DNA of 64,000 bases from positions 5,890,001-5,954,000 of the forward strand of contig CM069154.1 of assembly GCA_035221665.1 (NCBI GenBank). Direction: 5' to 3'. The stretch is from Okamejei kenojei. Its lineage: Eukaryota. This document shows, in pieces, positions 2,399 through 62,854 of this stretch. The notes beneath the pieces were generated by a model. That model made no database searches and had not been told where the DNA came from. It worked only from the letters and a program-made list of their open reading frames with translations. Within the stretch, counting starts at the first letter, position 1. Every line of letters starts with the position of its first letter. A program made the translations under genes and the position numbers.

Positions 2399-2445
2399 CT
2401 GCATTTCATTGTTATATGCTCTGGGAGGTTTGTTCCCCTCTGATT
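2399..2445 (-). CDS. Gene A penultimate cytoplasmic exon
   Basis: gttttccag|...CAG|gtaaag, 47 nt, phase 1-0, SEGNKPPRAYNNEMQ; same length, phase and ending (NNEMQ/NNDIQ) as gene B exon 29913-29959. Confidence 0.8.
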
Positions 2446-5400
2446 CTGGAAAACACAATGTTAACATTGAAAGGAGCATGTCAGGGACATTTTTAATCAG
2501 CCATCTTGCTGCATATAGAGTAGGAAGGAACTTCAGATGCTGGCTTATACTGAAGATGGACACAAAATGCTGGTGTAACTCAGCAGGAACAGGCAGAACT
2601 CTGGAGAGAAGGAATTGATGACGTTTCAGGTTGAGACCCATCTTCAGACCGTTCTCTCCAGAGATGCCTGTCCCGCTGATTTACTCCAGCATCTTGAGTC
2701 TATCTTTGGTGTATAACCAGCATCTGCAGTTCCTTCCTACTCTTTGATTCATGAGAACCACAGGGGCACCACAGGCCCAATTCGCCGCAAGCAGCACAGT
2801 TCTGGTCAGGTTACTGCACTGAAAGTTCAAAAAGGATCTGATAGAACCCTTCTTGATTAGTAGGGGCTTCAAAGTTTATGGGGAGATGGCAGGAGAATGG
2901 AGTTGAGAGGGAAAAAGTGATCACCCACGATTGCTTAGCTCATTAATCAAGAACACATCAATCTGTGCTTTAAAAATACTCAATGACTTGATCTCCACAG
3001 CTGTCTGTGACAATAACATCTCCACAGCTGTCTGTGACGATACACCTTTTTATCTGAGGCTATGCCCTCTGGTCCTAGTCTCTCTCACAAGTGGAACAAA
3101 CCTCTCCACATCCGTTCTATTTCATCCTTTCACTATTCCATAAGTTTCAATGAGGTTCACCTCATCCTTCTAAACTCCAGTGAGTACAGGCCCAGTGCTG
3201 TATATAACTAACTACGGCAGATTATTGAGAAATCCTAATCCACACTTTCAAACACAACAGCTAATTTACTGAGATGTGTAGAAAGGAACTGCAGATGCTG
3301 ATATTTACCGAAGATAGGCACAAAGTGCTGGAGTAACTCAGAGGAAGGGTCCCAACCCGAAACATCACCATTCCTTCTTCTCCAGAGATGCCACCTGACC
3401 TGTGTTTTGCTCCAGCATTATGTGTTTATCTTAGCTAATTTGCCAATGTCCAGTTTTTGAGAATTGGGAGGGTGGGGTGCAAGTAAATCTTACGTCTACT
3501 CAACCTCTTAGTTATAGTGCCATGGACTAGAACTAAGACTCAAACAGCATACAAAGTGGCCCTTTTCCCCAACTTGCCCATGCCAACCAAATTGCTCAAT
3601 TTACACTAACCCGACCTGCTCACCTTTGGCCCATATCCCACTAAACCATTCCTATTGAAGATAGACACAAAAAGCTGGAGTAACCCGGTGGGTCAGACAA
3701 CATCTCTGGAGAAAAGGAATAGGTGATGTTTAGTCGAGAAGTCACCTATTCTTTTTCTCCAGAGATGCAGTCTGACTCGCTGAGTTACTCCAGCTGTTTG
3801 TGTTTATCTTCGGTTTCAACCAGCATCTGCAGTTCCTTCCCACACAAACTATTCCTATTCATTTACCTGTCCAAATGTATTTTAAATGTTGTTGTAGGAC
3901 TTGCCTCAACTACCTCCTCTGGCAGCTCGTTCCAAAACGTTCCCCCTCATGTTCCAAAACCTTGCCTCTCAGGTTCCTATTAAATATTACCCTTGTCACC
4001 TGGCAGTTACATTGTTCTTCTGTGCTACATATAACTAAATAAAAACACCTCAACTCTGGGTCTTGGTTCACAAGAACCGACTACTACAATCACTTAACAT
4101 AGGCTGGCACAGTACCACAGCCTGTAGAGCTGCTGCCTCACAGTGCCAGAGACTCAGGTTCAATCCTCACCTCAAGTGCTACCTGCATGGAGATTGCCTG
4201 TTCTTCCTGTGACTGCGTGGGTTACCTCTGGGTGCTCCGGTTTCCCCCTACACCCGAAAGACATGCACGCCTGTAGGTTAATTGCCCACTGTAAATTGCC
4301 CCTAGTGTGTAGGCGAGGGGTTGAATCTTGGGGGAATTGATAACAACATGGAGAGAACAAAGTTGGATAAGATTAGTGTGTGGAAAGGAACTGCAGATGA
4401 ACGAATGAATGAATAAGTTTATTGGCCAAGGATTCACATACAAGGAATTTGCCTTGGTGCTTTGCCCGCAAGTGACACCGACAAACAGTGACAGTTAGGA
4501 ATGACTGTTAAGAATGCTAGTTTACACCAAAGCTAGATACAAAGTAGTAACTCAGTGGATCAGGCAGCATCTCTGGACAAAAAGGGTGGGTGACATTTCA
4601 GGCTGGGTCCCTTCTTCAGACTGGATAGGATTATTGTAGGACTAGAATAAAGAGGTGATTGATAGTCAACGTGAACTCAGTGTGCCAAAGGGCCTGTTTC
4701 CGTGCTGTATCTCCCTCTCTCTCTCTGCAGGAAATTATCACATACATCATGAAAGGATGAAGGAAACATAGAAACTCACTCTTTTGTCCACACTTTAGGC
4801 AACAAAGTAGACCAGCAACGATTACCACGAGAAGAGCTCCAGCAATACTGAGCCAAATTATGGGTCTATGGGACAGAGAAAGCAAAAAGGTTACTCGTGT
4901 TTCATCATTGATTCTTATCCTTTGGTAAAGAACAAAAGTCTAACATCTGCAAGGTATCTTTCATGAGCTCAGGATAAATCAAGCCCAATGAATGGAGTGC
5001 AGACATTGCTGTAATGTGGTAAGCACCCAAGCCAAACTTCCAACAGCAAGTCCCACAAACAGCAGTGCGATGACGACCAATGATTGTGATGTTGGATAAA
5101 GAATAAACCCAACTCAACCCAACAGTTGCGCAGCATGGAGTTGCTGCCTTACAGCACCAGAGACCCAGGTTCAATCCGGACTACAGGTGCTATCTGTAAG
5201 GAGTTTGCATTTTCTCCCTGTGGGATGAAGTGGGTTTCCTCCGGGTGCCCCAGTTTCCTCCCACATCACAAAGACGTGTGGGTTTGTGGGTTAATTGACC
5301 TTGTTAAATTGCCCTTAATTTGTACCAAGTGGATGAAAAAGTCGGATAACATAGATCTAATATGAAAGGGTGATCGATGGACAGCGTGGACTTGGAGGAA

Positions 5401-11400: not shown

Positions 11401-14400
11401 GTTCCTTGTGTCTCTACCTCTCATATTGAAAAGCAAGGCCAATCAAAACTTGAGCAAGTGAAAATTATACCTGTTAGAGAAATTGGGCGCAGTGGTTTCC
11501 TGATGATTGGGTGTTAGTTTTGTATTTGAAGTAAATGCTACTGTTGTAAGCGATCCTGGATTAGATTTACGTTCTGTTGAGAAAAGGAAATAAAAGACAA
11601 TTAAAGATAGACAAAATATGCTGAAGTGACTCAGTGGGACCCGCAGCACCTCTGGAGAGAGGGATTGGGTGAAGTTTCAGGTCTGAGGATAGGTCTCGGG
11701 CCGAAACGTCACCCATTCCTTCCCTCCAGAGACGCTGCCTGTCCCGCTGAGTTACTCCAGCATTTCAAGTTCACGTTCAAGTTCACATTTATTGTCACGT
11801 GCACCAATTAAGGTATAGTGATATTTGGGTTATCAAACAGCCATACGTTAACAAAAATAACGCAATACACAATAGTTTTAACATAAACATCCACCACAGT
11901 AGAATCATCATTCCTCACTGTGATGGAAGGCAATAAAGTTCAGTCATCTTCCTCCTTTTTACCCCCTTGGTGGTCGGGGCCTTGAGCCCTCAGCACTGTT
12001 TGAACCCTCCACCTCCAGTTTAAATTCCAGTTGAAATATTTTGGAGGACCAAGTAACCAAGAACCACTGCCTCTGCTGACGGCCCAAAGTTCGAGCCCTT
12101 GAGTCGGGCTGATGGAGACTCCGGCGTTGGGGCGGAATGGAAACACACCATGGCATGGATCTCCCAAGTCGGCCTTTTCTTACCGGAGACCATGGCTTCA
12201 CGGTGTTAGCCCCGCTGTCGGAGCACTTCCACAGCAATCCTCGACAAAGGATCGCAGCTCCGTGATGTTAAAGTCCACGCCACGCTTGCGACTTGAAGCT
12301 CCAGGCCGGTCTCCGGCCCAGTTGTTAGGCCGCGGGGAGGGGACGGAGACGTGACACGGGGAAAGATCACATCTCCGTCGTGGTAAGTGACTGAAAACGG
12401 TTTCCCCATATTCCCCCCCTCAACCGGAGATAAAAAAATACAGAGAAACATTAAAACATACATTTTAGACACACTAAAAATAACAAAATAGCCGAAATAA
12501 CACACAAGCTGCTGGCGAGGCTCCCATCTCAGCGCCACCCAATGATGTATCTCTCTATTCTATAGATTTGGTATCTATCTCTGATTAAAACAGCATCTGC
12601 AGTTCTTTCCTACACAATAAAAGACAATTCCCTGTTTGCCGTTTCGTCATTATTCAAGATCCAGGGGCGTCATCTGCAAACTCCCAGGAGGGGTAAGAAC
12701 ATAATTCGACCAAAGCGCATAGAGATCCCGGCATTGATCCCTATGGTACATCATTTAGGGCGGCACGGTGGCGCAGCTGTAGAATTGCTGCCTTACAGCG
12801 CCAGGGACCCGGGTTCGATCCTGACCATGGGGGCTTGTCTGTCTGGAGTTTGTACGTACTCCCCGTGACCTGCGTGGGTTTTCTCCAAGAACTTTGGTTT
12901 CTTCCCACGCTCCAAAGACGTACAGGTTAATTGGCTTGGTGTAAATGTAAAATAGTTCCTAATGTGTATAGGGTAGTGTTAGGGGATCACTGGTCAGCAA
13001 GGACTCGGTGTACCTATCTGTACATTGTGGACAGCTTGATAGTAATCATGTATATAGTATTATCTGCTTTTTGGAGAGCACACGGAAAAAAAAGCTTTTC
13101 ACTGTATCTCGGTACACATGACAATAATGAACTAAACTAAAACTAAACAAAATTTGGTGAGATTCCTGGAAAACTTCAGCACAATGTGACGGCAGGAAAT
13201 TGTCAGAGATCTGTTGCATGTTCTGTGGGTTTAGGGAGAGAGAATAATTGTGTTTAGTTTCAGTGGGCTACGGTGGAAGGAGAGAGCGGGTGATGGTGTG
13301 AACCTGGGAAAACTGTTCCTGATGGACTGAACCCAGTCTGTTGAGCTCAAGGGGACTGATTCCCCCTTTTATTATTAATTATCGAGGTGTTTCAGAGCTT
13401 GAAGTGGGTGGCCGCTCAGTGGGACAGTGGTGAGAGACATAGGGTGAAAGCAACATGAGTGGCGTTTCCCGATCCCCGCCCGCTCCCTGCAGGTCTCTGC
13501 ACTGGCGCGGAGCCTCGGGATATCGGTGCTGCCCTGACCCTTCCTGGAGAAAACATGGATCAGGCGTTTCAGTGGAGACATCAAGTCAATCGCTGAGAAA
13601 CGTACCGTCAGATACTTGGAGATGAACAGTAAACAATGGATCAAAGCCAGGTGCAGTAATTCCACATCTGTACCATCCGGTATCTCCAGAGTGAAGATCC
13701 TCCACAGTCACTCTAAATATTCCTTGTGCCGGGTTATCTGTGATTGACGTTCTTCCACTCCGTCCGTGTTGCCCATTTGTTTCCACTACAACTGAACACA
13801 TGAAACTCCTCCCGTGGCACCAGTATTTTGTGGCTGAGCCGCGCCATGATTCATAGTGACAATCGATTGTAATATTTTTTCCCACAACTCCTCCTACATA
13901 TTTCTTTGCCCACAGTGCACCTGAAACTGAGAGGAAAAATCTTTAGAAAACGTACAGGACAAATCTACTTAACACAGCGTTTGCTGGCCCACCCACTCTT
14001 CCCCTACCAAACGATGGGCCGAATGGTCCAACCCATGTGTGGACATTCACTTACCCTTGAGCCAAACACAAAGTGCCGGTGTAACTCAGCAGATCAGGCA
14101 GCATCTGTGGATGGAATGGTCTAGTGACGTGTTGGGTTGTGACCCTTCTTCAGACTGATTAAAGTAGGGTGGGGAACGTGGGAAGAGTGGTGGAGATGGG
14201 ATAAAACCTGGCAAGTGACAGGTGGAAGGTAGACACAAAATGCAGAGTAACTCAGCGGGACAGGCAGCATAACAAGTTTTTGCTGGATAGAGAGATGGGA
14301 ATTTTGACTGGTTCATGGGTGGACAAAGACTGGAGGTGAAAAGCGGTCAAAAGGTTGTCAGATGAGGAGAGAAGAGAAGTGAAATGTAAAGGCAGAGGGA

Positions 14401-23400: not shown

Positions 23401-24594
23401 ATCGAACCCAGGTCCCTGGTACTGTAAGGCACCGCTGTGCCACTGTCCCTCCCACTTGTAATTGTTTCTGTTCTTTCATTCACAGTCGGTTTGTGCTTTC
23501 AGATACATTGGCGGCCATGATTTATGTGTGGCACAGTGATAGAGACAGGAGATTGGAAAACCACACTCTAAAAATGAGACAAAAGAGATTGCAGATGCTG
23601 GAATCTGGAACAACAAACAGCACACTGGAAGGAATCAACGGGTTATGGAGGTTTGAAGGCAAAAAAGTGTAAGTCATTCTTTCAGATCGAGACCCTGCAT
23701 CGGGACTGAGAGGGGACAGAGATGTTTGGCAACATATAGATGTACTAAAGCGTGGGAGGGTCGGGACTGGTTGAGGAGGATGGAACTGGATAAAGAGAAT
23801 GTGTTTGATAGAGAATACACAAGCAGAACACGAGAGGTTGATTGATAGTTCAAAACTCAATGGTATAAACATACATTTTCCAATTTTGGGTAATTCACAC
23901 CCTCTGGTGGTTCTCCTCCCACACAAGCCCACCTGCCGATCCTGCCTCAACCTTTCCTGCCTCCCTTCTCAGTCCCGATACAGGGTCCTCTTCGCATTCA
24001 CAGATGCTGGCTGACCCGCTGAGTTCTTCTTTCTTGTTCCACGCCCCAATATTGTTCAGTTATCTTTACATCTGCAAGCATTTAACTATGTCCATCCACT
24101 GCAGAAATGGTGCACGAGACTCAGATAAATTCTGATCACCAAAATGAAAATCAAAATAAAACTATGGGGAGGTTAAAAAATCTAACACAAAAACAAAAAA
24201 ATAATCAGGTGGTCAGGCCGCATCTGTGGCAAGAGAGTTAGGTTTTAGGTCGAAGGATCTCTGATCTGAAAAGATGACTCTTTTTCTCGGCACACCTGCT
24301 AAGTATTTCCAGCATAAAGGAAGGAACTGCAGATACTGGTTTACACCGAAGATAGACACAAAATGCTGGAATAACTCAGAGGGACAGGCAGCATCTCTGG
24401 ATAGAAGGTATGGGTGACATTTTGGTTTGAGACTTTTCTTCAGCCTGGCCCGCTGAGTTACTCCAGCACTTTGTGACTATCTCGTACTTCCCATAGTGTC
24501 TGGTCAGATGAACGTCCAAATCAAGCTGTTACTTACCGGGCAGGGAATAAATGAGTAGAATTGGAATCCACATAGTTTTATCCAAGTAGACCAT
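2399..24594 (-). CDS. Gene A: CD300/pIgR-like (MDIR-like) single-V receptor, leader-V-stalk-TM-cytoplasmic; 3' end outside window
   Basis: Six GT-AG exons with matching phases (1,1,2,1,1,0) join into one open frame: MWIPILLIYSLPVSGALWA-V domain-ERKSNPGSLTT...-RPIIWLSIAGALLVVIVAGLLCC-...YNNEMQ. Confidence 0.85.
3494..3526 (-). CDS. Gene A cytoplasmic exon (3' half of an interrupted exon)
   Basis: 33 nt, phase 1-1, IHGTITKRLSR; donor gtaagattta and ACTAAGAGG shared with gene B exon 31633-31688; the acceptor appears TE-derived. Confidence 0.5.
3521..4001 (-). mobile_element. CR1/HER1-like 3' fragment with nested Penelope hairpin (~3658-3845)
   Basis: ggccc...ccaacttgccc...aactacctcctctggcagctcgttcca...caggttcctattaaat, matching similar fragments at 39845-40146. 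Confidence 0.7.
4780..4865 (-). CDS. Gene A transmembrane exon (uncharged TM)
   Basis: ctttctctgtcccatag|...A|gtgagt, 86 nt, phase 2-1; PIIWLSIAGALLVVIVAGLLCCLKCGQK. Confidence 0.85.
5498..6017 (-). mobile_element. CR1/HER1-like 3' fragment with (ATATGGTT)n tail
   Basis: ORF 5579-6016 ERVQRRFTRM..LERRRLRGDLIE..FFTQRVV. Confidence 0.9.
6374..7667. mobile_element. Non-autonomous DNA transposon (~1.3 kb) with 15-bp TIRs
   Basis: TIR aggtatgttacaaaa / ttttgtaacattgct; flanking direct repeat acttgtagt (6365-6373, 7668-7676; 7-9 bp depending on TIR boundary). Confidence 0.85.
7274..7485 (+). mobile_element. Short non-LTR retro-insertion with (AAG)n tail
   Basis: 11-bp TSD aagtcaatgga (7263-7273, 7486-7496). 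Confidence 0.8.
7913..10127 (-). mobile_element. Rex1/Babar-clade LINE, internally deleted and frameshifted
   Basis: FPNQKPW, CLNDYRPVALT, LFIDYSSAF, FKFLGVHI, AHQRLYFLRRL; tail ttgac repeats at ~7913-7930. Confidence 0.9.
10885..11390 (+). mobile_element. Degraded CR1 3' fragment
   Basis: gggatcttataga...ggggccacagttta...ggcctactcctgcac tail. Confidence 0.85.
11471..11573 (-). CDS. Gene A Ser/Thr/Pro-rich stalk exon
   Basis: tttccttttctcaacag|...AG|gtataa, 103 nt, phase 1-2; ERKSNPGSLTTVAFTSNTKLTPNHQETTAPNFSN. Confidence 0.75.
11765..12540 (-). mobile_element. Non-coding non-autonomous element with Rex1-like 3' tail
   Basis: gtgacaataaa...(GAACTT)n tail at ~11765-11800; GC-rich 5' end ggtggcgctg; inserted in a Penelope hairpin. 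Confidence 0.5.
12758..13010 (+). mobile_element. tRNA-derived V-SINE (HE1-like); representative of >12 copies (also ~4103, 5125, 14822+21178, 23155, 24988, 25918, 26508, 29650, 35010, 38236, 55533+57128, 63050)
   Basis: A box tggcgcagc.gtag, B box ggttcgatcc, V-domain core (gcgtgggttttctcc...cccac.ctccaaagac), HER1-like tail. Confidence 0.88.
13330..13930 (+). repeat. V exon plus ~250 bp downstream intron duplicated at ~46690-47395
   Basis: Shared intronic text gaagtgggtggccgctcagtgggacag...ggagcctcgggatatcggtg...aaaacatggatcagg. Confidence 0.88.
13606..13926 (-). CDS. Gene A V-set Ig exon (CD300/pIgR type)
   Basis: ctctcag|...G|gtacg, 321 nt, phase 1-1; ITIDCHY, KYWC...C (extra C-C' disulfide), DTGWYRCG. 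Confidence 0.93.
15574..16548 (-). pseudogene. DIRS tyrosine recombinase, inactivated
   Basis: SAQRVQTL, FKSHSTRAAATS, AGW...FY; in-frame stops at 16183 and 15868; 5' end cut by a CR1 insertion. Confidence 0.9.
16549..17796 (+). mobile_element. 5'-truncated young CR1 LINE inserted in the DIRS
   Basis: RT C-terminus (LDFQKAFD, GVPQGSVLG, KFADD), (TTCTATGT)n tail, TSD aaaac at 16544-16548 and 17797-17801. Confidence 0.95.
17795..19807 (-). CDS. DIRS pol: reverse transcriptase, RNase H, methyltransferase-like region
   Basis: 670 aa; IDLKDAYY, LPNGLSSAP, AYLDD, IDASDLGWG, DLFASRLN, YAFPPF. Confidence 0.93.
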   Translation of the reverse strand: MIRKYYHPTQPNVHPYTGRRRPPRSYGEVQKIYSILKETVDKSPVGGRLQMFYNEWLAITSDRFILQTVSGATITFKEGVNSLVQNKPAYGFMFSATEEAEINVEIDKLCKKGVIEKTVEHKHQFVSNIFPRSKKDGGCRIILDLTNFNKKCVDYKHFKMETFNTTRHLISAGCYMATIDLKDAYYSVPIHRFFRRYLKFNWLGQLWQFNALPNGLSSAPRLFTKLLKPALAQLRAQKHIIMAYLDDILIINSNLESAEKSVSATKTLFEKLGFLIHPIKSQLQPAQSINYLGFVINSVTMLVTLPTDKIDDILMTCRGLIHKPYPSIREVAKVIGKLVAAFPTVEFGPLHYQNLQRDKIRALKKRAGHFDRPMQLTKEALLELQWWIENVPQAAKNILIQQPEVILQIDASDLGWGATDSFTSCGGRWTVQEEMFLQTYGINYLKLLGAFYGLKAYCSTKKNLHVLIQLDNKTAVAYINHMGGVRSVSCDCLVNQIWQWCIKHQIWISANYILGKDNVVADNRSKVFKDNTEWMLNPVIFSKIVIQYGLPDIDLFASRLNHQLPKYVSWEPDPDAVAVDAFSLHWGNMFFYAFPPFALVQQCLKKIEQDSATGLLVIPNWPTQPWFPLMLNMIKEPYMSIPSSSDLLIKPVTKDIHPLHAYMNLLICRF
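19881..20912 (-). CDS. DIRS gag-like ORF1 (probable frameshift near 19920)
   Basis: 343-aa ORF first in the element, with YKTPENCTSLKVPTVNPSIW motif. Confidence 0.75.
   Translation of the reverse strand: MEKSQRKVLRVKRSSRGEAKESGQEISADPVPIPVAADSPVSETIISPEMQTMEENVPRKSKKKSVRPVVSDNDSDNESPPDNKAIWLKMEHMEKVLQNIMRQWSQYPEVSQNDPEGFEYNEYGYVPNWEFETPDPGLRAEEVSLDIIPSVSGLQKTDPASGDVDYECTPRIKKNRPDVPDMAKDFAIPEGSGEAMEESLAASINYMVSHQLQDSVMIETAELYKTPENCTSLKVPTVNPSIWTPLTPGMRGQEIRFQRILKLISAAITAFGRQMEGSEMVKIQKDTLGLLCNSFYEINCMRKIAIRHIFHPRFAGLCRPSGVQAPGYLFGEKWMKRLNLLAT
21578..22082 (+). mobile_element. Degraded CR1 3' fragment
   Basis: ORF 21531-21938 AIEGEQRSFTRLIP..SRTRGHSLRIRG. Confidence 0.85.
22160..22457 (+). 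mobile_element. Element with L2-type 3' tail and (GAG)n run
   Basis: gtaaagcactttgg...aagtgctatataaataaa(TTAC)n. Confidence 0.55.
24537..24594 (-). CDS. Gene A exon 1, signal peptide (MVYLDKT)MWIPILLIYSLP
   Basis: In-frame ATGs at 24594 (gctaccATGG) and 24573; phase-1 donor G|GTAAGT; near-identical to the gene B leader. Confidence 0.88.
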
Positions 24595-29232: not shown

Positions 29233-29508
29233 CTAAGAAACAACAGAGGCATAAATTGTCTCAGAGTTCTCTGGAGTCCCAGTAGAGTGGGGTTTCCGAA
29301 TGCCCTTTGGGCAGTTGCGATGAAAATTGACATCTGCATAGACAACAGCATTGTCAGTCACATGGTGCCTTGATCTCGACTTCCTTTGACAATTCACCAC
29401 TGCGTACGTGATTCCACCTTCATTGTTATCCAAATGGTCAGGTGCCCTGTTGTTTCCAAGTTGCTGCAGATTTGAATAAACGTGGTTCCCTTCCAACACT
29501 GCCATTTC
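29233..29508 (-). CDS. Gene B terminal exon with ITIMs (ITYAVV, VVYADV), ITSM (TIYASV) and a YSNL tyrosine
   Basis: ttacattttag| phase 0; ORF 29233-29505 ends in TAG; motifs fit (I/V/L/S)xYxx(L/V) and TxYxx(V/I). Confidence 0.9.
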   Translation of the reverse strand, partial: EMAVLEGNHVYSNLQQLGNNRAPDHLDNNEGGITYAVVNCQRKSRSRHHVTDNAVVYADVNFHRNCPKGIRKPHSTGTPENSETIYASVVS

Positions 29509-41500: not shown

Positions 41501-44500
41501 CTGCATCAGTGGGGGAGGTTGAAGATGGGGTGTCTGTCAAGCGCGATTCTGGGTCATGACAGACCAAGCACAAGTGTTCAGCGAAACTGTGGTCTAGGCC
41601 AGTGCTTCTTAAACTGATGAATGGTTCAAAGGGTGAATGAAATTATTTTGGGGTGAATTTGTTAATTGATGTTTTTTGCTCATGTGACAAAATAAATTAT
41701 ATATACAATTATACACAAGGGAGAATAAGATGAAAATTACCAAAAAAAACATAAGAAAATTTAGTCGAAGGGTGAATGAAATTTTGTGCTAAATACACAA
41801 GGGTGAATGACACTGAAATATTTTAAAAAGAAGTGGCCTTGGCTGCGCTTGGTCTCGCCGATGTAAACCATTTACGCTCTCTTATGGACTTCCAATCAGA
41901 GCATCTCCACACCTACTGCGGGTTTCATTTAAAATTCTCTTTGACAAAAGTAAGGGTCATACTTGATGGAGTGACGGCCAAGCAGATTCACTTTAATTAT
42001 GTGAGATTACTGGAGTTCCAGTGATTCACGCAAATTAACAGTTAAAATCATGAACATTATCATGAAATTGTACATAATAATAATAATAAAAATATATTTT
42101 ATTGTCATTACACATAAGTGCAACGAGATTTGTTTTGCAACTCCATCCGATGTCATAACTTAAACGACTAATAAAATTTAGGTTTAGATACCCCGAGAAC
42201 AAGATTTGTGAAAAGAACATTAGAACAGTAAAACAGTCAAAACCAAAACAGACTAAAGTGCAGATGTGTCTGTGCGACGTGACCATCCAAGGGAGACAGT
42301 CCATGGGGGGGGGGGGGGGGGGTACTCAGCAGGACAGGTTCAGAGCCGCTATAGCTCTGGGAATGAAGCTGTTCCTGAGTCTGGAGGTGCGGGCATAGAA
42401 GGCCTTGTAGCGTCTGCCAGAAGGGAGTAGTTCGAACAGTCCATTACAAGGGTGAGAGGAATCTTTATGGATGCTGACGGAGTTCCTCAGGCACCGTGTG
42501 TGGTAGATGCCCTCCAAGGCTGGTAGCGGTGTCCCAACAATCTTTTGCGCTCTGTGGACGACGCGCTGAAGAGCTCTCCTCTCTGCCTCCGTGCAGCTGA
42601 GATACCACACAGAGATGCCATACGTTAGTATGCTCTCTGTCGTGCAGCGGTAGAAGGTCGTCAGCAGCTGTTGGGGCAGACCAGTCCGTTTCAATGTTCT
42701 TAGGAAGAACAGTTGTTGCTGTGCCTTTTTGACCAGCGCAGCAGTGTTGGTCGACCATGTGAGGTCCTCTGAGATTCGTGGTTATAAATGATCATGGATC
42801 CAAATAGAATACATTTGGTTGCTTTCTCTTTCTCAAAGTGACTGTGAGATCTTAAGTGGCAGCTAGAGAATCATTTTTAAAGCAGAAGGCAGTAACTTGA
42901 TGGAATGCACTCAATGCGTTGTGATAAGTGCAGATCTTTCTCTCCTTTCGAAGCTCAACACCTCCCAGGTGAAAGCAACAGGCAATTATTTGCCAGTTCC
43001 CCAAACACTCTCGCATTTTACACCATGAGCTCACGGTAGCTGTAATGATGCCGTCTGCAAATACCAAGAAACCCATGAACATCACCACAAGGAGATTAGC
43101 AGCAGGTTCAGGGACTCTAGAGGAATTGTGAAACAGTATTCCCATGGGAAAATAACACTCACCTGCATTGTTCATTTCTGTCACATAACTGCACGTTCCT
43201 GCTCCTTTGAAGACTTTCACGTTGACAATGTCACTAGATTTTGTCTCACCATAATTAGAGGCTGTGCAGTAATATTGACGGTGTTGACCTCTGAGGATTT
43301 CACAACTCAGATCCAGTTGATTGCCAGACGAGATCCTTGAACACCCATACTCTTTCTTCTCACACCATGTGTAATGGATGGGAAGGGATCCACGGACAGA
43401 CTCACAGGACACTGACACTGAGCCTCCGAGACGTGAGGCATTTGCTGGTGACAGATATCTGAGCACAGGAGCAGACACGGGTTCTGTGGGAATGGAGCAA
43501 ACATTCAGTCACTTGTATGAACAGTTCAAAACCAATCACATGCTAAATCTCAGCAGCCCTTTATCTCAGCCCGAACCGTCCGGTTGATATCTCAACGGCT
43601 CATCTACATCTCTGTGAGTGTGCGAAGCCCAGAAACTGAAGAAGGTTAGAGTTGTAGAGAAACGAAAGAGGCCCATGACCAAACATGCCACTGCGGTAAA
43701 TGACACCTTACTAATCCCCCCTCTTTAAATAGTTTCCATTACCTCTGTCCTCCACTTTCTCATCCCGCACATCATGGGAAAATGAACATGCTTCTCGTGA
43801 TTGATACATTTCTCTAAGTTCCTTGCTCAATCATTTCCACAGCAAGGAATAAAGTCTTAGTTTGTCCAATCGCTCTCTGCATCAATCGCATCCTGTCCAG
43901 GCAGCGTCGCCCTAAATCCTTTCTGGACGCTGTCCACCTCAAAGGCATTTTTCTTGGAGCTGAAGATCTAAAGCTGAACACAATTCCCAAAGTGCGGATT
44001 CAACATCTGCACGTCTGAAGCTTATTATCTCAAATTATGTTCTGAATGTTCTCACTGATGAAGACCAGCGTGCAAAAAACCCTATTCAATGCCTTGGAAT
44101 TTAAAGGCGAAAACTAATTACGATCGCTTTAAGATAGACACAAAATGCTGGAGTAACTCAGCGGAGCAGGCGGCATCTCTCAAGAGAAGGAATGGGTGAC
44201 GTTTCGGGTCGAGACACTTCTTCAGCCTGAGAGTCGTGGGACAGGGAGAGAGAGAAATGGAAGGGTAAGATGTGAAAACAAGTCATCAAAGGTGACAAAG
44301 TTAAAGGAAATTGTAGAATGAATCATTGTCGACTGAAGGGAAGGTGACAACGAGGCATACAATCAGTAAAATAGAATCAGGGTGACAGTGAAACTAAATG
44401 GAGAACTAGGATGGAGGCAGGATGGAAAGGAGTAAAGCAAGGGTTACTTGAAGTTCATTGTTTTAACCGTAGTGACAAGGCCAGCTGCTTTAAATACCTG

Positions 44501-47500
44501 GGAGTCCACATCACAGAGGATCTGACATGGACAACACACACTGCCACACTGGTGAGTAAGGCATGGCAGTGCCTTTACCACCTCAGACAGCTGAGGAAAT
44601 TCAGAGTCTCTCTGAGAATCCTTCAGTGCTTCTACTCTGGGGCTATAGAAAGCATCTTGTCCGGCAACATCACAATCTGGTTTGGGAACAGCTCTGCCCA
44701 GGACAGGAAAGCTCTGCAGAGAGTAGTGCGTTCGGCCAAACGTACTATGGGAACTACACTCGCCCCCCTGCAGGACCTTTTCACCAGGAGGTGCAGATCC
44801 AGAGCCAGCAACATTATGGGGGACCCCTACCACCCCAACAACGGACTGTTCCAGCTGCTAAGGTCAGGCAAACGCCTCCGCTGTCATGCTGTGAAAGCAG
44901 AGATGATGAGACGGAGTTTCTTCCCACAGGCCATCAGGACTGTAAACTTATCTCACCAGGGACTCATTCACTGTCCTAATTTACTATTGTGTTGTGGCTT
45001 AAAAAAATAATCTCTTCTAACATGTAAATACTGAATCTGTTTCATTCCATTCTATTCTGTACTTTGTGTGCAATCCGCAGGCATTGCCACTTTCATTTCA
45101 CTGCATATCTTGTATGTGTATATGACAAATGAAGTTACTTGTCTTGTCCCCTGTCGCTCAAAACACTAGGTTGTAAGCTGCCCAAGTGAAATATGAGGTG
45201 CTGTTCCTCTAATTTGCCTTTGACCTCACTCTGACAGTGGAGGAGGTCCAGGACAGAAAGGTCAGTTTGGGAATGGGAGGGGGAATTAAAGTGTTTAGCA
45301 ATCGGGACTTAGCGTAGGCCGAGGCAGACTGAGCGGAGTTGTTCAGCGAAACGATCACCGAGTCTGTGCTTGGTCTCGCCGATATATAGGAGTTCACACC
45401 TGGAACAGCCAATATAGTTGACGAGGTTGGAGGAGATGCAAGTGAACCTCTGCCTCACCCGAAAAGACTGTTGGAGTCCTTGGACAGAGTAGACGGAGGA
45501 GGTATAGAGACAGGTGTTGCATCTCCTGCAGTTGTAGGGGAAGGTACCTGGGGAGGGGGTGGTTTGGGTGGGAAAGGACGAGTTGACCAGGGACTTGTGG
45601 AGGGAACGGTGTCATCGGAAAGCAGAAAGCGGTTGTGATGGAAAGATGTGGCTAGTGGTGGGATCCCGTTGGAGGTGGTGAAAAAGTCGGAGGATTATGT
45701 GCTGTGTGCGACGGCTGATGGGGCGAAAGATTTGTTTATTGTGCTCCCCACCAGGGAAATATCCGGGCAGAGAGGCTGGCTGGCTAGCTGCCGGGCGGTG
45801 GGTGGACAGTGGCTGCTGGGGGTGTGGGCACATTGAAACATAAAACGTAGAAAATAGGTGCAGGAGCAGGCCATTAGGCCCTCCGAGCCAGCACCACCAT
45901 TCATTGTGATCATGCTGATCATCCGCTATCAATAACCCAGGCCTGCCTTCTCCCCAAATCCCTTGACTCCACTAGCCCCTAGAGCTCTATCTAACTCCCT
46001 CTTAAATCCATCCAGTGATTTGGCCTCCACTGCCCTCTGGGGCAGAGAAGTCCATAAATTTACAACTCTTTAGGTGAAAAAGTTTTTTCTCACCTCAGTC
46101 TTGAATGACCTCCCCTTTATTCTAAGTGTGGCCAGTGGTTCTGGACTCGCCCAACTTTAACCATATAACCATATAACAATTAATACCATATAACCATATA
46201 ACATTAACCATATAACCATATAACAATATAAAATATAACCATATAACCACATAGCAATTATAATAACTTTGCGAACATTTTTCCTGCATCTAGCTTGTGC
46301 AGTCCTTTTATAGTTGTATACCTTTCTATAAGACCCCCCTCAACCTTCTAAACTCTAGTGAATACAAGCCTAGTCTTTTCGAATTTTACTCATATGACAG
46401 TCGCGCCACCCCAGGGATCAATCTCGTGAACCTACGCTGCACTGCCTCAATCACAAGGATGACCTTCTTCAAATTAGGAGACCAAAACTGTGCACAATAC
46501 TCCAGATGTGGTCTCACCAGAGCCCTATACAACTGCAGAAGAACCTCTTTATTCCTATACTGAAATCCTCTTGTTATGAAGGCCAACATTCCACTAGCTT
46601 TGAGGGAGAGAGAGAGGGCGCGCAGAGTGGGGAGCGAGCGACTGATCCCAGAAGTGTGGGCGGGGGCGGGCTGGCCGTCCCCGGGAGGACTGAACGCAGT
46701 CTGTTGAGCTCTGGAGACCATGTTTATGATTCTCCGGGTACTCAGACCGCGAGCAACATTTGTTTCTCACGGATCTGTCGGATAATTAGCTTGAGTCGGA
46801 ATGCAAACCTCTGACAGGGTGATATTTCATACAGTTAAGTGGCAAGGTAATGTGCTGAGCTTCCCAGTTGAAGTGGGTGGCCGCTCAGTGGGACAGAGCT
46901 CGCCCTGGGTGAGAGCAACATGAGTGGGGTTTCCCGACCCCCGCCCGCTCCCCGCAGGTCTCTGCACTGCTGCGGAGCCTCGGGATATCGGTGTTGCCCT
47001 GACCCTTCCCGGAGAAAACATGGATCAGGCATTTCAGTGGAGATGTCAAGTCAATCGCTGCGAAATGTACCGTCAGATACTTGGAGATGAACGTTAAATG
47101 TTGGATGGTCGGCAGATGTTGTAATTCCACAACGGTACCATCCTGTATCTGTAGCGTGAAGATCCTCCACAGTCACAGTAAATATTCCTCGTGCCGGGAT
47201 ATCTGTGATTGACATTCTTCCACTCCGTCCGTGTCGCCCACTTGTTGCCACTGCACACCGTTTCCTCCTCCAATCACACCAGTATTTTGCGTATGAGCGG
47301 TACTCTGCTGCATAGTGACAATCGATTGTGATCGCTCTTCCCACAACTCCTCTTACATCCCTCTCTCCCCACACTTCACCTGAAACTGAGAGGAGAAACT
47401 TTCAGATGGAGACCAAATGAACTGTTTAATGGAAATAGATATATTTTGAAGATTACAGGAAATAAAACTTAAATCGTTGCATGATGTGTCATATTGCTTC

Positions 47501-48516
47501 ACGACCAATGTCTCCGGTCTGAAGTGCAGGCAGTGCTGTTATTGTACCTGTTGTGTCAGTGTTCTGACCCCGGGTCAGTACAATTAGGGTTCACTTCCCA
47601 CTCCAGATCCCTGAGCAGAAACTGGACTGGGACCGCATTGCGGTACTGAGGGAGCGCGGCAGTGTTGCAGCAGCTGCCTTTCAACAATCCCAGGCGGTGC
47701 CCGGCCTCTCACCCTACAGATAGACCCCACTTTGCTATTTCATTGGAGGTGCCGCCGACTCCGCTGCCAACATTCATCTCTCAACCGATGGTGGGCCGGA
47801 CCCGTGTTTAGACATTCACTGCCTTTACAACGCCCTGACTGAGGACAGAGGACGGACGGCTTACAATAAAGCGGGTCCGTTACCGGAAAGCGATAGGAGC
47901 GTGAAAACTCACAGCGCCAGATTTGGGGACAATTTTGTTCCCAGCTGTTATCAGGAACCCGAATCGTCCTACCATAACAGAGAGCTGTGCTGAACTTCTT
48001 TGTACCTCTTTGATGACACTCGGACTACCCTTGATCGGACTTTGCTGGCTTTACCTTACACTAAACGTTATTTCCTTTTCGTGTATCTATGCACTCGATT
48101 GTAATCATATATTGTCTTTCTGCTGGCTGGTTAGCAGGCAACAAAAAAGCGTTTCACTGCACCTCGGTCCACGTGACAATAAACTAAACTGAATTGGGAG
48201 CCAAATGTCCCGCTGCTCATCGGGGACAGGTTCTGATTCTCAATTTAAACTATCATCAGGATGCAATTAGGCCATGTGACAACAGTGGTTAAACTACGAA
48301 CATAGTCTAGTTATTCAAATGTGATTTCAGATCCATTACCACAATGCACTGGTTTTATTTCCTCCATTACATGTCCACACACACTTAACCATCTCTGCTG
48401 TAGAAAGGGTGCACGGGACCCCAACTAACATCGATTATTGGAATATCAACATCTGGCTTTCACTCACCGGGCAGCGAGGAGATGAGAAGAATGGGAATCC
48501 ACATTGTTTTATCCAT
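29233..48516 (-). CDS. Gene B: inhibitory Ig receptor, leader-V-C2-V-C2-hinge-TM-tail with ITIM/ITSM (~590 aa)
   Basis: Nine phase-compatible GT-AG exons give one open frame when the 56-nt exon is skipped or corrected. Confidence 0.85.
29913..29959 (-). CDS. Gene B penultimate cytoplasmic exon
   Basis: attttccag|...CAG|gtaaaa, 47 nt, phase 1-0; SNCNTSHGEENNDIQ. Confidence 0.82.
31633..31688 (-). other. Gene B candidate cytoplasmic exon, 56 nt, out of frame as assembled
   Basis: Good acceptor (ttttaacatcaccgtacag) and donor (gtaag); phase-1 entry gives ETV-stop; one more A in the initial A-run would give ENCLSVKWQRCVRTKRPGG in frame. Confidence 0.5.
31902..31990 (-). CDS. Gene B transmembrane exon (uncharged TM)
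   Basis: tgtccaacag|...G|gtgagt, 89 nt, phase 2-1; ITYIFVSGVTVFVLILIIAFLWYRKRKSK. Confidence 0.88.
32352..32381. repeat. Interstitial telomeric repeat (CCCTAA)5 at the L1 5' junction
   Basis: Five perfect vertebrate telomere hexamers directly abutting the L1 coding sequence. Confidence 0.9.
32382..35005 (+). mobile_element. 5'-truncated L1-clade LINE (fish-type), AT-rich, decayed
   Basis: YRAISLLNTD, DQTGF, LDAEKAFD, RQGCVLSPLLF, LYADD, FSGYRINWNKS; A-rich tail 34979-35005. Confidence 0.92.
36495..37532. mobile_element. Rearranged Penelope relic
   Basis: TDVYYKPTDSHNYLDH on - strand; GIY-YIG remnant and terminal repeat on + strand. Confidence 0.75.
37764..37998. mobile_element. Palindromic non-autonomous Penelope-derived element with 12-bp TSD
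   Basis: ~100-bp inverted arms; agtttaccttga at 37752-37763 and 37999-38010; absent at the paralogous site ~62800. Confidence 0.85.
38006..38054 (-). CDS. Gene B hinge exon
   Basis: ttgttccaacag|...AG|gtaaac, 49 nt, phase 1-2, GLEYSCETSKRSKYTS; paralog at 62806-62854. Confidence 0.82.
39404..39724 (-). CDS. Gene B C2-type Ig exon 2
   Basis: ctttccaacag|...G|gtaagt, 321 nt, phase 1-1; VSCESVRGSLPISYTW..YYCTASN. Confidence 0.9.
40853..41170 (-). CDS. Gene B V-set exon 2
   Basis: ttccttcag|...G|gtaggt, 318 nt, phase 1-1; begins VSGALWA; KYWCPGTSRQC, DTGWYRCG. Confidence 0.92.
41600..41835. mobile_element. hAT-Charlie-like MITE
   Basis: Starts CAGTGCTTCTTAAACT, degenerate right TIR, imperfect 8-bp TSD gtctaggc/gccttggc, internal aagggtgaatga repeats. 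Confidence 0.65.
42068..42780 (-). mobile_element. Rex1/Babar 3' fragment
   Basis: FYRCTTESILTYGISVWY..LPSGRRY; (TTA)n tail. Confidence 0.88.
43163..43483 (-). CDS. Gene B C2-type (FCRL/PECAM-like) Ig exon 1
   Basis: cccacag|...G|gtgagt, 321 nt, phase 1-1; EPVSAPVL..VSCESVRGSLPIHYTW..YYCTASN. Confidence 0.9.
44131..45720 (-). mobile_element. Penelope relic interrupted by Rex1
   Basis: Terminal repeat with hammerhead motif 44198-44225; GIY-YIG remnants 45170-45720. Confidence 0.8.
44485..45146 (+). mobile_element. Rex1/Babar 3' fragment inside a Penelope relic
   Basis: FKYLGVHITEDLTW..IESILSGNITIWFGN..RRSFFPQAIR. Confidence 0.88.
45835..46600 (-). mobile_element. CR1 3' fragment containing a tail-repeat insertion
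   Basis: LYRALVRPHLEYCAQFWSP; CR1 3' UTR at 45835-45930. Confidence 0.85.
46159..46264. repeat. (AACCATAT)n reiterated LINE-tail insertion
   Basis: Flanked by aacttt direct repeats (46153-46158 and 46265-46270); unit equals the tail at 5498-5520. Confidence 0.8.
47071..47385 (-). CDS. Gene B V-set exon 1
   Basis: 315 nt, phase 1-1; AITIDCHY..KYWCDWRRKRC..DTGWYRCG..VHLQVSD. Confidence 0.93.
48468..48516 (-). CDS. Gene B exon 1, signal peptide (MDKT)MWIPILLISSLP
   Basis: ATGs at 48516 and 48504; donor G|gtgagt, phase 1. Confidence 0.88.
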
Positions 48517-50237: not shown

Positions 50238-50337
50238 ACATAGAAACATAGAAACATAGAAATTAGGTGCAGGAGTAGGCCATTCAGCCCTTCGAGCCTG
50301 CACCGCCATTCAATATGATCATGGCTGATCATCCAAC

Positions 50338-57125: not shown

Positions 57126-57577
57126 GCCACCCTACACACACTGGGGACAACTTATATTTATAGCAAGCCAATTAACCTACGTACCTGTACGTCTTTGGAG
57201 TGTGGGAGGAAACCGAAGATCTCGAAGAAAATCCACGCGGTCATGGGGAGAACATACAAACTCCGTACAGACAACTCCAGTAGTCTAGATCGAACCCGGG
57301 TCTCCGGCGCTTCAAGCGCTGTAAGGCAGCAACTCTACCGTTGCTCCACCATTGCCATTATTTATAGTCATCTAACACCTTTGGACGGTGGACAAAATGA
57401 ATAGCTTGTTGCAGCATTAAAATGTTTATCAATATTACGGTACTCAAAAGACGCGAAAGTGGGATGCTATAGAACCAGTGTGAAAGGGTTAATTGCTGAT
57501 TGAAGTGGACTCGGTGGGCTAAATGGTCTGTATCCATCCTGTATCTTTCAATCACTTAATCAAAAAAAATAGTTTTA

Positions 57578-58268: not shown

Positions 58269-58541
58269 AAATATTAGTTGCATATCGGAAATGGAATCTG
58301 CTTTTGATGGATGTGCAAAGCGCGTCAGCCAGCATCTGTTGACAGAAAAATAAGGCTAATAGTCAGAACAATGTTGATGCATAATTTTGTTCTGATGGGA
58401 TAGCATGGCCTGAAAGATTAATTGATTGCCTTTCCTAAACGCAACTAACGTTTGGCAACAGGAGGATTATCCAGCAGTCTGATTGCAGTCTGTTGTGCAT
58501 CACTAAAGTTGCAGTCTATACAAAACAAATTAGACAAACCA

Positions 58542-58564
58542 TTTATTGACAACAATCATTTATT
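58542..58564 (-). terminator. Two AATAAA polyadenylation signals ~200 nt after the gene C stop
   Basis: tttatt on + strand at 58542-58547 and 58559-58564. Confidence 0.5.
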
Positions 58565-58765
58565 AAGAAGCATTATGTTGCATTATTATTCATTAACCAG
58601 TGAAAAATTTTTTTTCCAGAAAGTTGAAAGCATCTAATATAGTTTAACAGAGTATTAGAGTCTGGAGCAGCAAAAACCACGCAGAGGTTAAAACAATAGT
58701 TCGAAGCTGACGAAAGAATCCTTGGAAGAGGTGACAAAAATTAAGGTGGTGCAAGCTGGGTGTCT

Positions 58766-58813
58766 TCATTGTAAGTCGTGGGTCGAGTGGCGAAGTTCTG
58801 ATTCATCGCGTCT
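58766..58813 (-). CDS. Gene C terminal coding exon (15 aa, no tyrosine)
   Basis: attatcttttgcag| phase 0, RRDESELRHSTHDLQ-TGA. Confidence 0.65.
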   Translation of the reverse strand, partial: RRDESELRHSTHDLQ

Positions 58814-61800
58814 CTGCAAAAGATAATGTGAAGTCATCAGTCTCATTTGACCCGACCGCTCCCAACACAATGCTATCTGGAAGATGGACCCCAACAAATC
58901 CACACAGGGCACTGAAATCCACTCTGCACACGTGCAACCTGGCAAAACCTCGTGATATCATCTGCATTGAGATTTGGTTTAACTTCAGGATATGAAACCA
59001 TGCATGGTTTTTGTTTCTATTAATGGACAGGGTATTTGAAAGCATTAATGGAAACCGTTTGGATACATTCGGCGATGAAATGTGATTGCTTTGGTCAGGG
59101 GTGTTGAATCTATGGATTTCATTCCCACAGGAGGCTGTGGAGGCCAAGTGAATTCACACTGGAGATGCTGCCTGTCTCACTGAGTTACTCCAGCATTTTT
59201 GTATGTATCCAAATCAATTGATATTTTTAAGGGGGAGATTTTGATATTCTTGATAAATAAGGATGTCAATGGTTATGGGGAGAAGGCAGGAGAATGGGAT
59301 CGAGAGGGAAGGATAGATCAGCCATGATTGGGGGCGGATTAGATATGATGGGCTGAATGGCCTAATTCTGCTCCTATCATTTATGACCACGATGACAATA
59401 AAACCTACCTTAGAGCCTCTTGTGAACACCGCAGTTGAGATACTCCAGATCACAAGCAGGAGAAAGAGCAGCCAGCGCCCCACTCTCCATGAGATGTAAC
59501 TGGGCAGAGGGCAAGAGATACAGAATCAATGGGAGGAAATTAGACGGTTTATCTTTGAAGCATTTACCTGTTATTTGCTTCATAATCTTGGTGAAGTGGA
59601 GCGGGGCGAAGCAGCAGAGTAAATGGAGATCATCTTGGAGAAAGAATGGGTGTTAGACGTGAGGGGGGGTCGGGGGTTGGGGTGGGGGGGGGGGGGGACA
59701 ACTTATGATCACCAATTATTGACCTCATTTCTGGGGCATGGCTACAAGACTGGGTATGAGCGACTACGCAGTTAAATGGATTCGGAGAAGACCGAGAAAT
59801 AACTCTTGAGATGGAGCAGTGAATCAAGTGAATACAGAGTAGATAGACACAAAATGTTGGAGAAACAGCGGGAGAGGCAGTATCTCTGGAGAGAATGGAG
59901 GAAGATTGCAACCTTCACGTGGTCCGCCCTGTTTCGACTAGTGCAATCAACTCGACGTGCACAAATGGAAGATCAATTAGAACAAGTTGTCCAACAACTT
60001 TAGGCTGTGCACGCCACACGAAAGAAGAAGAAGAAGAAGACTGGGAATCACGGGAGAGGGAAAATGGGGATGTGGAAGGATACAAAGAACAGTGTAATAC
60101 CCTAGAAGAATGAAAATCCAGCTGCAAGGAAGAATATGGATAGACAGGAATAATAAAAATGGATCAATTCTAATGATAGAAGGGAGGTGGGGAATAAATA
60201 TGGAAACGGATGAGGCCAATAAATGAAATAAATTAAAAATGATAATGCATAATCTCACACTGGATACTTCTTGGATTAATGCGGTAGGTGTGTGCATGGA
60301 GGAAATGTGTTCGAAAAATCGGTTAAAGGCTCGCTCATAACGTGGTTTTGATGAACATTCTTATTTCCTAACGCAAGCGTAACGCAAGAGTGTGATAGGA
60401 AGTCAGATCTATTTCAATTGTAATAAGATAAATAACAAAGTGTTCACACTTTCATGACTATATTATGATTGAATATTTAATGGTTTCAAGTTTCAACGAG
60501 TAAAATAGCGTCAGTTAACTCATTTTGCTGTATTCGGTCTGATTCAAGACTAGTTTGTCACATTCTGCGCCAGTGATTTTAGGGTGTTTAACCCCATCAG
60601 TTGCAAGGTGTTGCCACACGTGATATCAAGGGGGGTGTCTTCGCCCATAATTCACAATGCATTTTCCTATCAGCACCACACCAGAGCAAGTCACAGCAAA
60701 GCTAAACTGCAACACTTGGGTTTGGCAACTATGTTCATCTCACAGCATGGGATGAGATTAGTGATGGAGGTCATGGTGAATACCGCAGGGAGCACTCTCT
60801 AAAAAGCAGCAAATGGGGGAACATGTTCTTATCATCCAAGCATGTGCACACCACAATGACATGTAAACCCAGTGCGATTCCCCTTCTGATGAGTTAACTA
60901 ATAACTGGTTTGCACGTAATATTTATTTTATTAAAGAATATTTAAAAGATAAATTTATATTTGGTGTCAGGCTTGAAACATGTACAACAATTGGTATGCT
61001 TCCTACTATTTGGGTTAATTGGATCAAAGACCTGTAGAGAAACACAGTAGAGAAATAGGGCACACAAAAGGCTGGAGAAACTCAGCGGGTGCAGCAGCAT
61101 CTAAGGAGCGAAGGAGATAGGCGACGTTTCGGGTCGAGACCCTTCTTCAGACTGGTCAGGGATCAGGGAAACGAGAGATATAGACGGTGATGGGGAGAAA
61201 TTCAATGTTCAAGCCCAGAGGATGCAGACTCCCCAAGCGGAATATGAGGTGCTGTTCTTCCAACTTGCGGTGTTGCTCACTCTGGCCGTGGAGGAGGCCC
61301 AGGACGGAGAGGGCGGATATGGAATGGGAGGGGGAGTTGAAGTGCTGAGCCACCGGGAGGTCGGCTTGGTTATTGCGGACCGAGCGGAGGTGTTCGGCGA
61401 AACGATTGCCAAGCCTCCGCTTGGTCTGACCGATATAGATCATCTGGCATCTGGAGCAGCGGATGCAGTAGATGAGGTTGGAGGAGGTGCAGGTGAACCT
61501 CTGTCGGACCTGGAAGGACTGCTTGGGTCCCTGAAAGGAGTGGAGGGGGGAGGTGAAGGGACAAGTGTAGCATTTCTTGCGGTTGCCCGGGGAAGGGGTA
61601 GAGCGGGAGGGAAGGGAAGAATTGACAAGGGAGTTGCAGAGGGAGCGGTCTTTGCGGAAGGCAGACGGCGGGGGGAGATGGCAAGATGTGGCGAGTGGAG
61701 GGGTCACGTTGGAGGTGGCGAAACTGGCGGAGGACTATGTGTTGTATTTGCCGGCTGGTGGGGTGAAAGGTGAGGACCAGGGGGACTTTGCCCTGTTTGC

Positions 61801-62854
61801 GAGTGGGGGAATGGGGAGAGTGGGCAGTGTTGCGGGGTATGGAGGAGACCCTGGTACGAGCCTCATCAATAGTGGGGGAGAGGAATCCCCGTTCTCTGAA
61901 GAATGAGGCCATTTGTGATGACCTGGTGTGGAACACCTCATCCTGGGAGCAGATGCGGCGTAGGCGGAGGAATTGGGAATAGGGGATGGAGTCCTTACAG
62001 GAAGCAGGGTGGGAGGAAGAGTAGTCCAGGTAGCTGTGGGAGTCAGTTGGTTTGTAGTGGATGTAGATCAGGAGTGTATCACCTGCAATAGAGATGGTGA
62101 GGTCAAGGAATGGTAGGGAAATGTCGGAAATGGTCCAAGTGTATTTGAGTGCCGGATGGAAGTTGGTGGTGAAATGGATGAAGTCGGTCAGTTGTGCGTG
62201 GGTGCAGGAGGTGACACCAAAGCAGTCGTCGCTGTAACAGAGGTAGAGGTCGGGGATGGGTCCCTGGTACGCCGAGAACAAGTATAGTTCGACGTACCCA
62301 ATAAAAAGGCAAGCGTAGCTGGGGCCCATGCGTGTGCCCATAGCTACGCCTTGTGTTTGGAAATAGGGCATTTGGCCGTTTCAGACAAATGCATTCACAT
62401 GATTCCTGTGTCAATCCTATCTTTATTTTCCCTACTTTCACATCAACTACCACTACCGTCCAACACCCTCCCTCCCCGCCCCACCCCACCCATTCTTCAC
62501 AGATTCAGCCGCTCTCCTGTACACACGGGCAGCTTACAACTGGCATGTGTTTGGGAGCTGGAAGGAAACTGGAGAATTTAAATGAAACCAACACAATTAA
62601 AGGCTAATCATACAGACCACACATAGACAGCAGTACATGTCGTGGCGTTGTGAGGCTGAGGCTGTGCCACTGTGCCTCAGGTCAATACTCTCATGCATTT
62701 AATGCTAGTGAAAGGAAGGCACAACTTTCTCCCAATTAAAGCATTCCCAATCAAAACTCCAGCAATTAGTACATTGTAACTTTAATTGGAAACAGAGTGG
62801 TTTACCTTGCAGAGTAATTGGATGTTATCGAATTTTCACAAGAATATTCATGAC
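58766..62854 (-). CDS. Gene C 3' part: activating-type receptor (hinge, TM with Arg, short tail); Ig exons lie right of the window
   Basis: Three exons with phases 1-2, 2-0, 0-stop joined in frame: GHEYSCENSITSNYSA-SYISWRVGRWLLFLLLVIWSISTAVFTRGSK-RRDESELRHSTHDLQ*. Confidence 0.8.
59409..59499 (-). CDS. Gene C transmembrane exon with Arg at the N-terminal side of the helix
   Basis: ctcttgccctctgcccag|...AAG|gtaggt, 91 nt, phase 2-0. Confidence 0.82.
59901..60040 (+). mobile_element. Short Vingi/Ingi-like retro-insertion with (GAA)n tail
   Basis: ...gcacgccacacgaaagaagaagaag end, inside a Penelope fragment. Confidence 0.45.
61058..62355 (-). mobile_element. Penelope-like element: RT C-terminus, GIY-YIG endonuclease and terminal repeat
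   Basis: GVAMGTRMGPSYACLF, YKPTDSHSYLDY, NLIYCIRCSRCQMIYIGQTKRRLGNRFAEH, GLN. Confidence 0.93.
61123..61150 (-). ncRNA. Minimal type-I hammerhead ribozyme motif in the Penelope terminal repeat
   Basis: CUGAAGA-A-GGGUC-UC-GACCC-GAAAC-GUC: core boxes, 5-bp stem II, palindromic ACGU stem III; stem I weak. Confidence 0.65.
62806..62854 (-). CDS. Gene C hinge exon
   Basis: 49 nt, same acceptor and donor as 38006-38054, conserved EYSCE. Confidence 0.82.

Follow-up and report, generated by a model that had tools for sequence, protein, structure and literature searches.

Three neighbouring receptor genes

Three neighbouring genes, A, B and C, lie on the minus strand of the window, by which we mean the whole stretch of 64,000 nucleotides that was analysed. 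They have GT-AG splice sites and open frames. V-set reading frames are found at 13.9 and 47.4 kb in the six-frame translation, and a self-comparison of the window gives low-copy colinear matches among the three regions. After splice-site fixing, A has five exons, B nine and C two. These initial 16 exons are all AG/GT-ended with no internal stop, and a third exon of C was found later. The exon modules named in the first-pass annotation are confirmed. Two of the three genes are partial in the window, with A lacking its last exon and C its Ig exons. The features are listed below with their matches to relatives, among them the skate receptors MDIR3 and MDIR5, which are treated in the next section.

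24537..24573 (-): A leader exon with ATG and GT donor; 31/37 nt identical to the B leader
13606..13926 (-): A V-set exon, phase 1-1; Pfam V-set E 1e-12; groups with Rhinoraja P0090 in the V tree
13400..13605 (-): intron tract after A V, common to B V1 (46869-47070); 138/150 nt identical, nhmmer E 1e-46
11471..11573 (-): A S/T-rich stalk exon, phase 1-2; 66% to the Rhinoraja A-type stalk
4780..4865 (-): A neutral TM exon, phase 2-1; acceptor intron homologous to that of B
2399..2445 (-): A 47-nt cytoplasmic exon; 14/16 aa match the Rhinoraja unit
48468..48504 (-): B leader exon; 16/16 aa match MDIR3, counted from the upstream in-frame ATG
47071..47385 (-): B V1 exon; Pfam V-set E 8e-12
43163..43483 (-): B C2a exon; weak Ig_3 match below the Pfam cut-off, 83% to MDIR5 and 90% to Amblyraja
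40853..41170 (-): B V2 exon; V-set E 2e-13, 90% to MDIR3 and 95% to Leucoraja
39404..39724 (-): B C2b exon; 83% to MDIR3 and 85% to MDIR5
38006..38054 (-): B Cys hinge exon, phase 1-2; 39/49 nt identical to the C hinge
31902..31990 (-): B neutral TM exon, phase 2-1; sister of MDIR3 in the TM tree (96/86)
29913..29959 (-): B 47-nt cytoplasmic exon; 14/15 aa match MDIR3
29233..29508 (-): B last exon with four Tyr motifs (ITIM/ITSM-like); 82% to MDIR3
62806..62854 (-): C hinge exon, phase 1-2; 87% to the MDIR5 hinge; exons upstream extend past the window
59409..59499 (-): C Arg-bearing TM exon, phase 2-0; 30/31 aa match MDIR5
58766..58813 (-): C short last exon with stop and AG acceptor; 11/15 aa match the MDIR5 tail
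35567..39374 (-): B side of the tract colinear with C 64000-60602, with 1875 nt aligned in 7 blocks; homology ending at 35567
60602..64000 (-): C region colinear with B; 7 colinear blocks
40149..40288, possibly to ~40560 (+): inverted, decayed 3' part of an A-type ITIM last exon in the B V2-C2b intron; tblastn E 1.5e-10

Phase is 1-1 in the V and C2 exons and 1-2 in the A stalk and both hinges; the TM exons of all three genes start in phase 2. Any outer part can therefore be joined to either TM type in frame.

Gene A had been described as a V domain, an S/T stalk, a neutral TM and B-like cytoplasmic exons. The V exon, the stalk (S/T at 10 of 32 residues), the TM and the 47-nt exon are present, but the plural does not hold for the window, which contains a single A cytoplasmic exon; the last exon was searched for in positions 1-2398 and not found there. 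In the Rhinoraja model P0004/5, a B-type unit precedes a V-stalk-TM-ITIM unit that matches A, which is the gene order of the window. The stalk, TM and 47-nt exon of A group with this unit, and both the V-stalk-TM layout and the position after a B-type gene are shared. Because the A TM groups with the Rhinoraja A-type unit in the TM tree (100/93), outside the B clade, the "B-like" tail of A is best read as old paralogy and not as a swap from B. An Arg TM is joined to a stalk of the A type in the skate-like record P0096 (49%), and the A stalk region weakly matches the C hinge region (E 0.009).

For B, all exons of the V-C2-V-C2, hinge and ITIM-tail architecture that had been claimed were located, and the predicted product of 590 aa carries the four Tyr motifs in its tail. 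An extra B exon near 31275-31217 was rejected, since it contains an in-frame stop and the match to MDIR3 does not require it. Gene C had been presented as a B-like hinge with an Arg TM; both exons were found, but the last exon at 58813-58766 had been overlooked.

Several other details of these genes were observed. The C2 exons carry an extra Cys at their end (39404-39440, minus strand), and the hinge at 38006-38054 (minus strand) also has one Cys; the two may pair as a disulfide. Gene A has no C2, and its stalk is Cys-free. In all three V exons (donors just after 13606, 47071 and 40853, minus strand), read-through of the donor runs into a stop some six codons further on and could thus yield short secreted forms. 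The B V1-C2a intron contains, between two repeats, a 30-nt match (44456-44485, minus strand; 93%, nhmmer E 0.007) to the 5'UTR and ATG of the B leader, possibly the relic of a second gene start. Five telomere-type hexamers (32350-32381) are located at the edge of an AT-rich block (~32400-35000) in the B hinge-TM intron.

The introns also harbor mobile elements and a stray family piece. At ~15000-21200 (minus strand), the A leader-V intron contains a retrotransposon with an RT open reading frame, broken tyrosine-recombinase-like frames and a LINE interruption. We take this element to be DIRS-like; related fragments are found at ~1345-2069. Copies of a young LINE family (16548-17797, 50241-51491 and 55949-56321) are 98.6-99.7% identical, and the nearly full-length LINE copy at ~50240-54300 has a GDSL-esterase ORF1. 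The piece at 40149-40288 is the best non-gene bin of 640, with a score of 112 versus 52 for the next; pieces of the family have thus also been relocated in inverted orientation. This piece has one stop and one frameshift and adjoins a LINE-like 3' fragment.

Membership in the MDIR family

In Pfam, the three V exons pass the V-set cut-off, and two C2 exons give weak Ig matches. The best matches of B V2 among sequences of solved structures (PDB) are pIgR, CD300f (E 1e-17), TREM2 and NKp44, and an extra Cys pair follows the YWC motif in all three V exons. Among longer proteins, 101 of 155 candidates were hit with V2 as the query, and 95 of 163 with the A V exon. Together they yielded 104 distinct proteins, nearly all from rays, skates and sharks, including MDIR2, 3 and 5 of the clearnose skate Rostroraja eglanteria. 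The closest V2 matches are found in Leucoraja (95%) and Amblyraja (91%), which makes a rajid skate the likely source of the window. B matches MDIR3 at 85% from V2 to the end; C matches the last 61 aa of MDIR5 at 89%; and the A V exon matches MDIR2, 3 and 5 at 67-72%.

On these matches, A, B and C are skate modular domain immune-type receptors (MDIR), which are CD300/pIgR-like. MDIRs are described, in the accessible part of PMC3031540, as multigene activating and inhibitory skate receptors related to CD300, TREM and pIgR. The V domains in the window are related to CD300/TREM/pIgR and have the second Cys pair, and B and C closely match the named MDIR3 and MDIR5. The number and order of V and C2 domains vary, from a single V in A and V-C2-V-C2 in B to more than 20 architectures in the 89 receptor units described below, many of them predicted models. 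As judged from sequence, both an activating-type form (C, with Arg TM and short tail) and an inhibitory-type form (B, with four Tyr motifs) are present. The family and its modular layout are already known, and modularity is in the MDIR name itself. The founding description, cited in PMC3031540, is that of Cannon et al. 2006, in which the number and order of V and C2 Ig domains reportedly vary.

MDIR2, 3 and 5 share with the window genes the leader, the V/C2 cassettes, and the neutral-ITIM and Arg-short-tail ends. MDIR3, however, is V-V-C2-V-C2, and B, as V-C2-V-C2, has one V fewer. The V-stalk-TM form of A is not among the named MDIR2, 3 and 5, the three covered by this comparison, with MDIR1 and MDIR4 outside it. 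The V domains of mammalian CD300 (CMRF35-like), pIgR and TREM are alike in being the best structure matches of V2 and in the second Cys pair. In the skate genes, in contrast, C2 alternates with V, and an Arg close to the outer face provides the TM charge. The ectodomain of pIgR proper consists of tandem V domains only, whereas V alternates with C2 in B. Many elasmobranch gene models called "pIgR-like", "FcRL5-like" or "CXADR-like" are thereby identified as one MDIR cluster. In the open literature, PMC3031540 is the sole paper found in which the accessible text names MDIR as a receptor family; the accessible text of PMC4810170 does not mention MDIR.

Module-by-module similarity

As had been claimed, A and B share the leader, the V exon (81%) with its downstream intron, and the 47-nt exon. 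Identity in the 150 nt of intron after V reaches 92% (best shuffle 55%), and the 47-nt exon agrees at 30/47 nt, which is marginal at the DNA level with a best shuffle of 62%. The TM acceptor intron is also common to A and B, beyond the sharing originally listed. The flanks of the TM and 47-nt exons are 56-67% identical versus the 92% after V (p<1e-7).

The dS of the three V pairs is 0.17-0.18, while that of B C2a versus C2b is 0.65, and the A/B TM, tail and leader exons, short exons with few sites, give 0.63-0.91. The V dS is lower than that of the other exons (Fisher p=1.6e-3 and 1e-4). V similarity mostly ends within tens of bases of the exon. This pattern of young exons in mostly unrelated flanks fits gene conversion. 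The low V dS and the 92% intron tract could also be a result of constraint. The V pairs have dN/dS of 1.0-1.3, and their differences, by eye, cluster in loop regions.

B and C share the hinge and introns, again in agreement with the first-pass annotation. Their intron blocks comprise ~1.9 kb with 74-90% identity. Because the block nearest C2 is identical at 416/465 nt (89.5%) and the remaining blocks at 1135/1410 (80.5%; p=5e-6), two exchanges of different age are suggested. The similarity had been thought to end somewhere between ~35540 and 31990 in B and between ~60590 and 59500 in C. An end does exist, but it is sharp and not spread over a wide interval: similarity stops within a few bases at B 35567 and C 60602. 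Around the TM exons, B and C do not align, and the scores of their 150-nt flanks lie in the range of shuffles. The pattern is compatible with either a crossover or a long conversion tract whose end lies in the hinge-TM intron. A B last-exon-like nhmmer hit (E 0.12) at 35414-35543 (plus strand), at the B/C end point, was considered as a cassette inserted into a split inverted exon and was rejected, as a frameshift-tolerant protein profile ranks it 98 of 640 bins.

For module trees across sharks and rays, 89 receptor units (39 with Arg TM and 50 neutral) were cut from the 104 proteins and the three window genes. Units were obtained from 81 of the 104 proteins, and 23 were without a detectable TM. 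The trees were built from 52-106 columns with LG+G4 without a mixture model, and the relatives are mostly predicted gene models, some of them visibly fused. In the Rhinoraja model P0068, TRIM69-like domains are joined to a C2-V-C2-Arg TM unit, probably as a fused prediction.

The TM tree separates Arg and neutral units once (100/99), with sharks and rays on both sides; unit class was assigned from the TM sequence, and this clean split is therefore partly circular. The Arg TM motif is kept in 38 of the 39 Arg units, from sharks to skates, which argues for a single origin of the Arg TM. The tree of the membrane-proximal C2 (71 of the 89 units) instead contains 19 class changes, of which well-supported branches force at least 17, and the AU test rejects an Arg clade (p=2.6e-5). 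A stricter set of 56 rows, from which 13 fused or suspect proteins were dropped, gives 13 class changes and AU p=2.1e-5. The best C2 match is of the opposite class within the same lineage in 60 of 71 units; for the TM, this is the case in 0 of 71. MDIR3 and MDIR5 agree at 88% in V and 82% in C2 but at 24% in the TM, and the MDIR5 TM matches a sawfish Arg TM at 59%. The V tree also mixes classes, in 81 domains from skates, sawfish and four shark proteins, with stingrays and two isoform duplicates omitted and a bootstrap that had not settled. Clustering of the class label in the full C2 tree hardly exceeds that in shuffles (39-45 of 500). Such near-shuffle clustering fits frequent exchange but equally fits noisy models.

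Per-exon phylogenies had been put forward as a check, with congruent exon trees as the sign of simple whole-gene duplication. The trees disagree. Because they are not congruent, simple whole-gene duplication is rejected, and an exchange of modules between genes is supported by the tree comparison.

Probable exchange between paired receptors

We consider the following reading likely, with a probability of roughly 0.8. In this tandem skate MDIR cluster, the predicted activating gene C and the inhibitory-type gene B, and likely A, keep two old signalling ends, and their outer exons have likely been re-matched repeatedly by gene conversion and occasional unequal crossover. Short conversion tracts would keep the V exons alike. 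The likeness of B-type and C-type genes between C2 and the middle of the hinge-TM intron would go back to an older, longer exchange, after which another one would have renewed the C2-proximal part alone. Crossover between V-C2 cassettes would alter domain number; variation in cassette number among relatives, many of them predicted models, fits unequal crossover. One haplotype does not suffice to distinguish conversion from crossover. From general receptor biology, C is predicted to signal through an ITAM adaptor via its TM Arg and B to recruit SH2 phosphatases, and selection may hold the B/C pair matched to common fast-changing ligands. The general biology behind an activating C with an adaptor and an inhibiting B is stated in the accessible part of PMC3031540.

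The first-pass annotation had attributed the swapping mainly to unequal crossover seeded in repeat-dense introns. The exchange of modules stands, as the trees are incongruent, but repeats are less likely than not to be its main seed. In favor of such crossover are the abrupt end of B/C homology inside an intron, the 29-84% of bases with a self-hit in 13 of 14 introns, and the wide differences in V-C2 cassette number among relatives. However, no shared co-oriented repeat was found at the B/C end point: self-hit coverage just after it is 0-1, and the only hits between it and the TM exons are poly-C tracts in opposite orientation. Furthermore, the self-repeat content of the hinge-TM introns (42% and 47%) is not enriched over that of the window (43%), V similarity for the most part does not reach beyond the exon, and the A layout is old and conserved.

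An ancestral gene that carried both TM exons as splice alternatives, with duplicates losing one each, is improbable. Both TM types accept phase 2, and the same stalk is found with both classes in 10 of the 39 Arg units, as this explanation would have it. It would, however, need to recur tracelessly in each lineage, and a search for a relic second TM exon with protein profiles and nhmmer found no Arg TM in A or B and no neutral TM in C, which counts against it.

Slightly less credible still is a history without exchange, in which whole genes were duplicated and the TM exon then changed fast or convergently. A and B do appear to be old whole-gene paralogues, because their leader, V, TM acceptor and 47-nt exon are homologous and the A stalk region weakly resembles the C hinge region. 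Against this explanation, the Arg TM motif forms one clade, the introns upstream of the break are 80-90% identical while the TM-flanking introns do not align, and the AU tests contradict it. It is equally hard to credit that the mixing was produced by chimeric gene models or by misassembly of a tandem array: several models do join neighbouring genes (P0004/5, P0011, P0019 and P0061), but the signal persists in the window DNA, where copies are 10-25% diverged, in the named MDIR3 and MDIR5, and in the stricter set.

Repeated re-matching of outer exons has a counterpart in mammals. The accessible part of Fossum et al. 2011 (PMC3210942) describes merohomogenization in the paired receptors KLRC/NKG2, KLRI, NKR-P1, Ly49 and PIR, and there, too, conversion could not be separated from recombination. 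As in the pairs described in that part, the signalling ends of MDIRs are older than the species, and the ligand-binding exons are alike within lineages. Both classes are found in sharks and rays, which places the opposing ends before speciation, and the ectodomains are closer within lineage than within class by the C2 matches and AU tests above. Unlike those mammalian receptors, MDIRs belong to cartilaginous fish and have tandem cassettes in variable number. In addition, the MDIR stalk/hinge exon is often exchanged too, whereas the mammalian membrane-proximal stalk exons, in the same source, are spared. No description of recombination in MDIR was found in the open literature; a prior one is possible, for example in the 2006 MDIR paper or its supplements.

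A wider reading seems to us evenly balanced. The MDIR cluster would be a phase-locked cassette system in which activating/inhibitory re-matching has been continuous since before the shark-ray split, independent in each of skates, sawfish, stingrays, electric rays and sharks, and ongoing today, so that individuals would carry KIR-like haplotypes with different gene contents and domain numbers.

No new mechanism is revealed here; the family, its modularity and the process are of known kinds. The base-level end point of one exchange tract was obtained, and the exon phases offer a simple reason why swaps stay in frame. The fast-changing V loops are the likely ligand face. The mammalian rule of matched ectodomains with opposed signalling ends is extended to cartilaginous fish, and if phase-locked re-matching has indeed been continuous, the MDIR cluster would be the deepest jawed-vertebrate case of paired-receptor homogenization.
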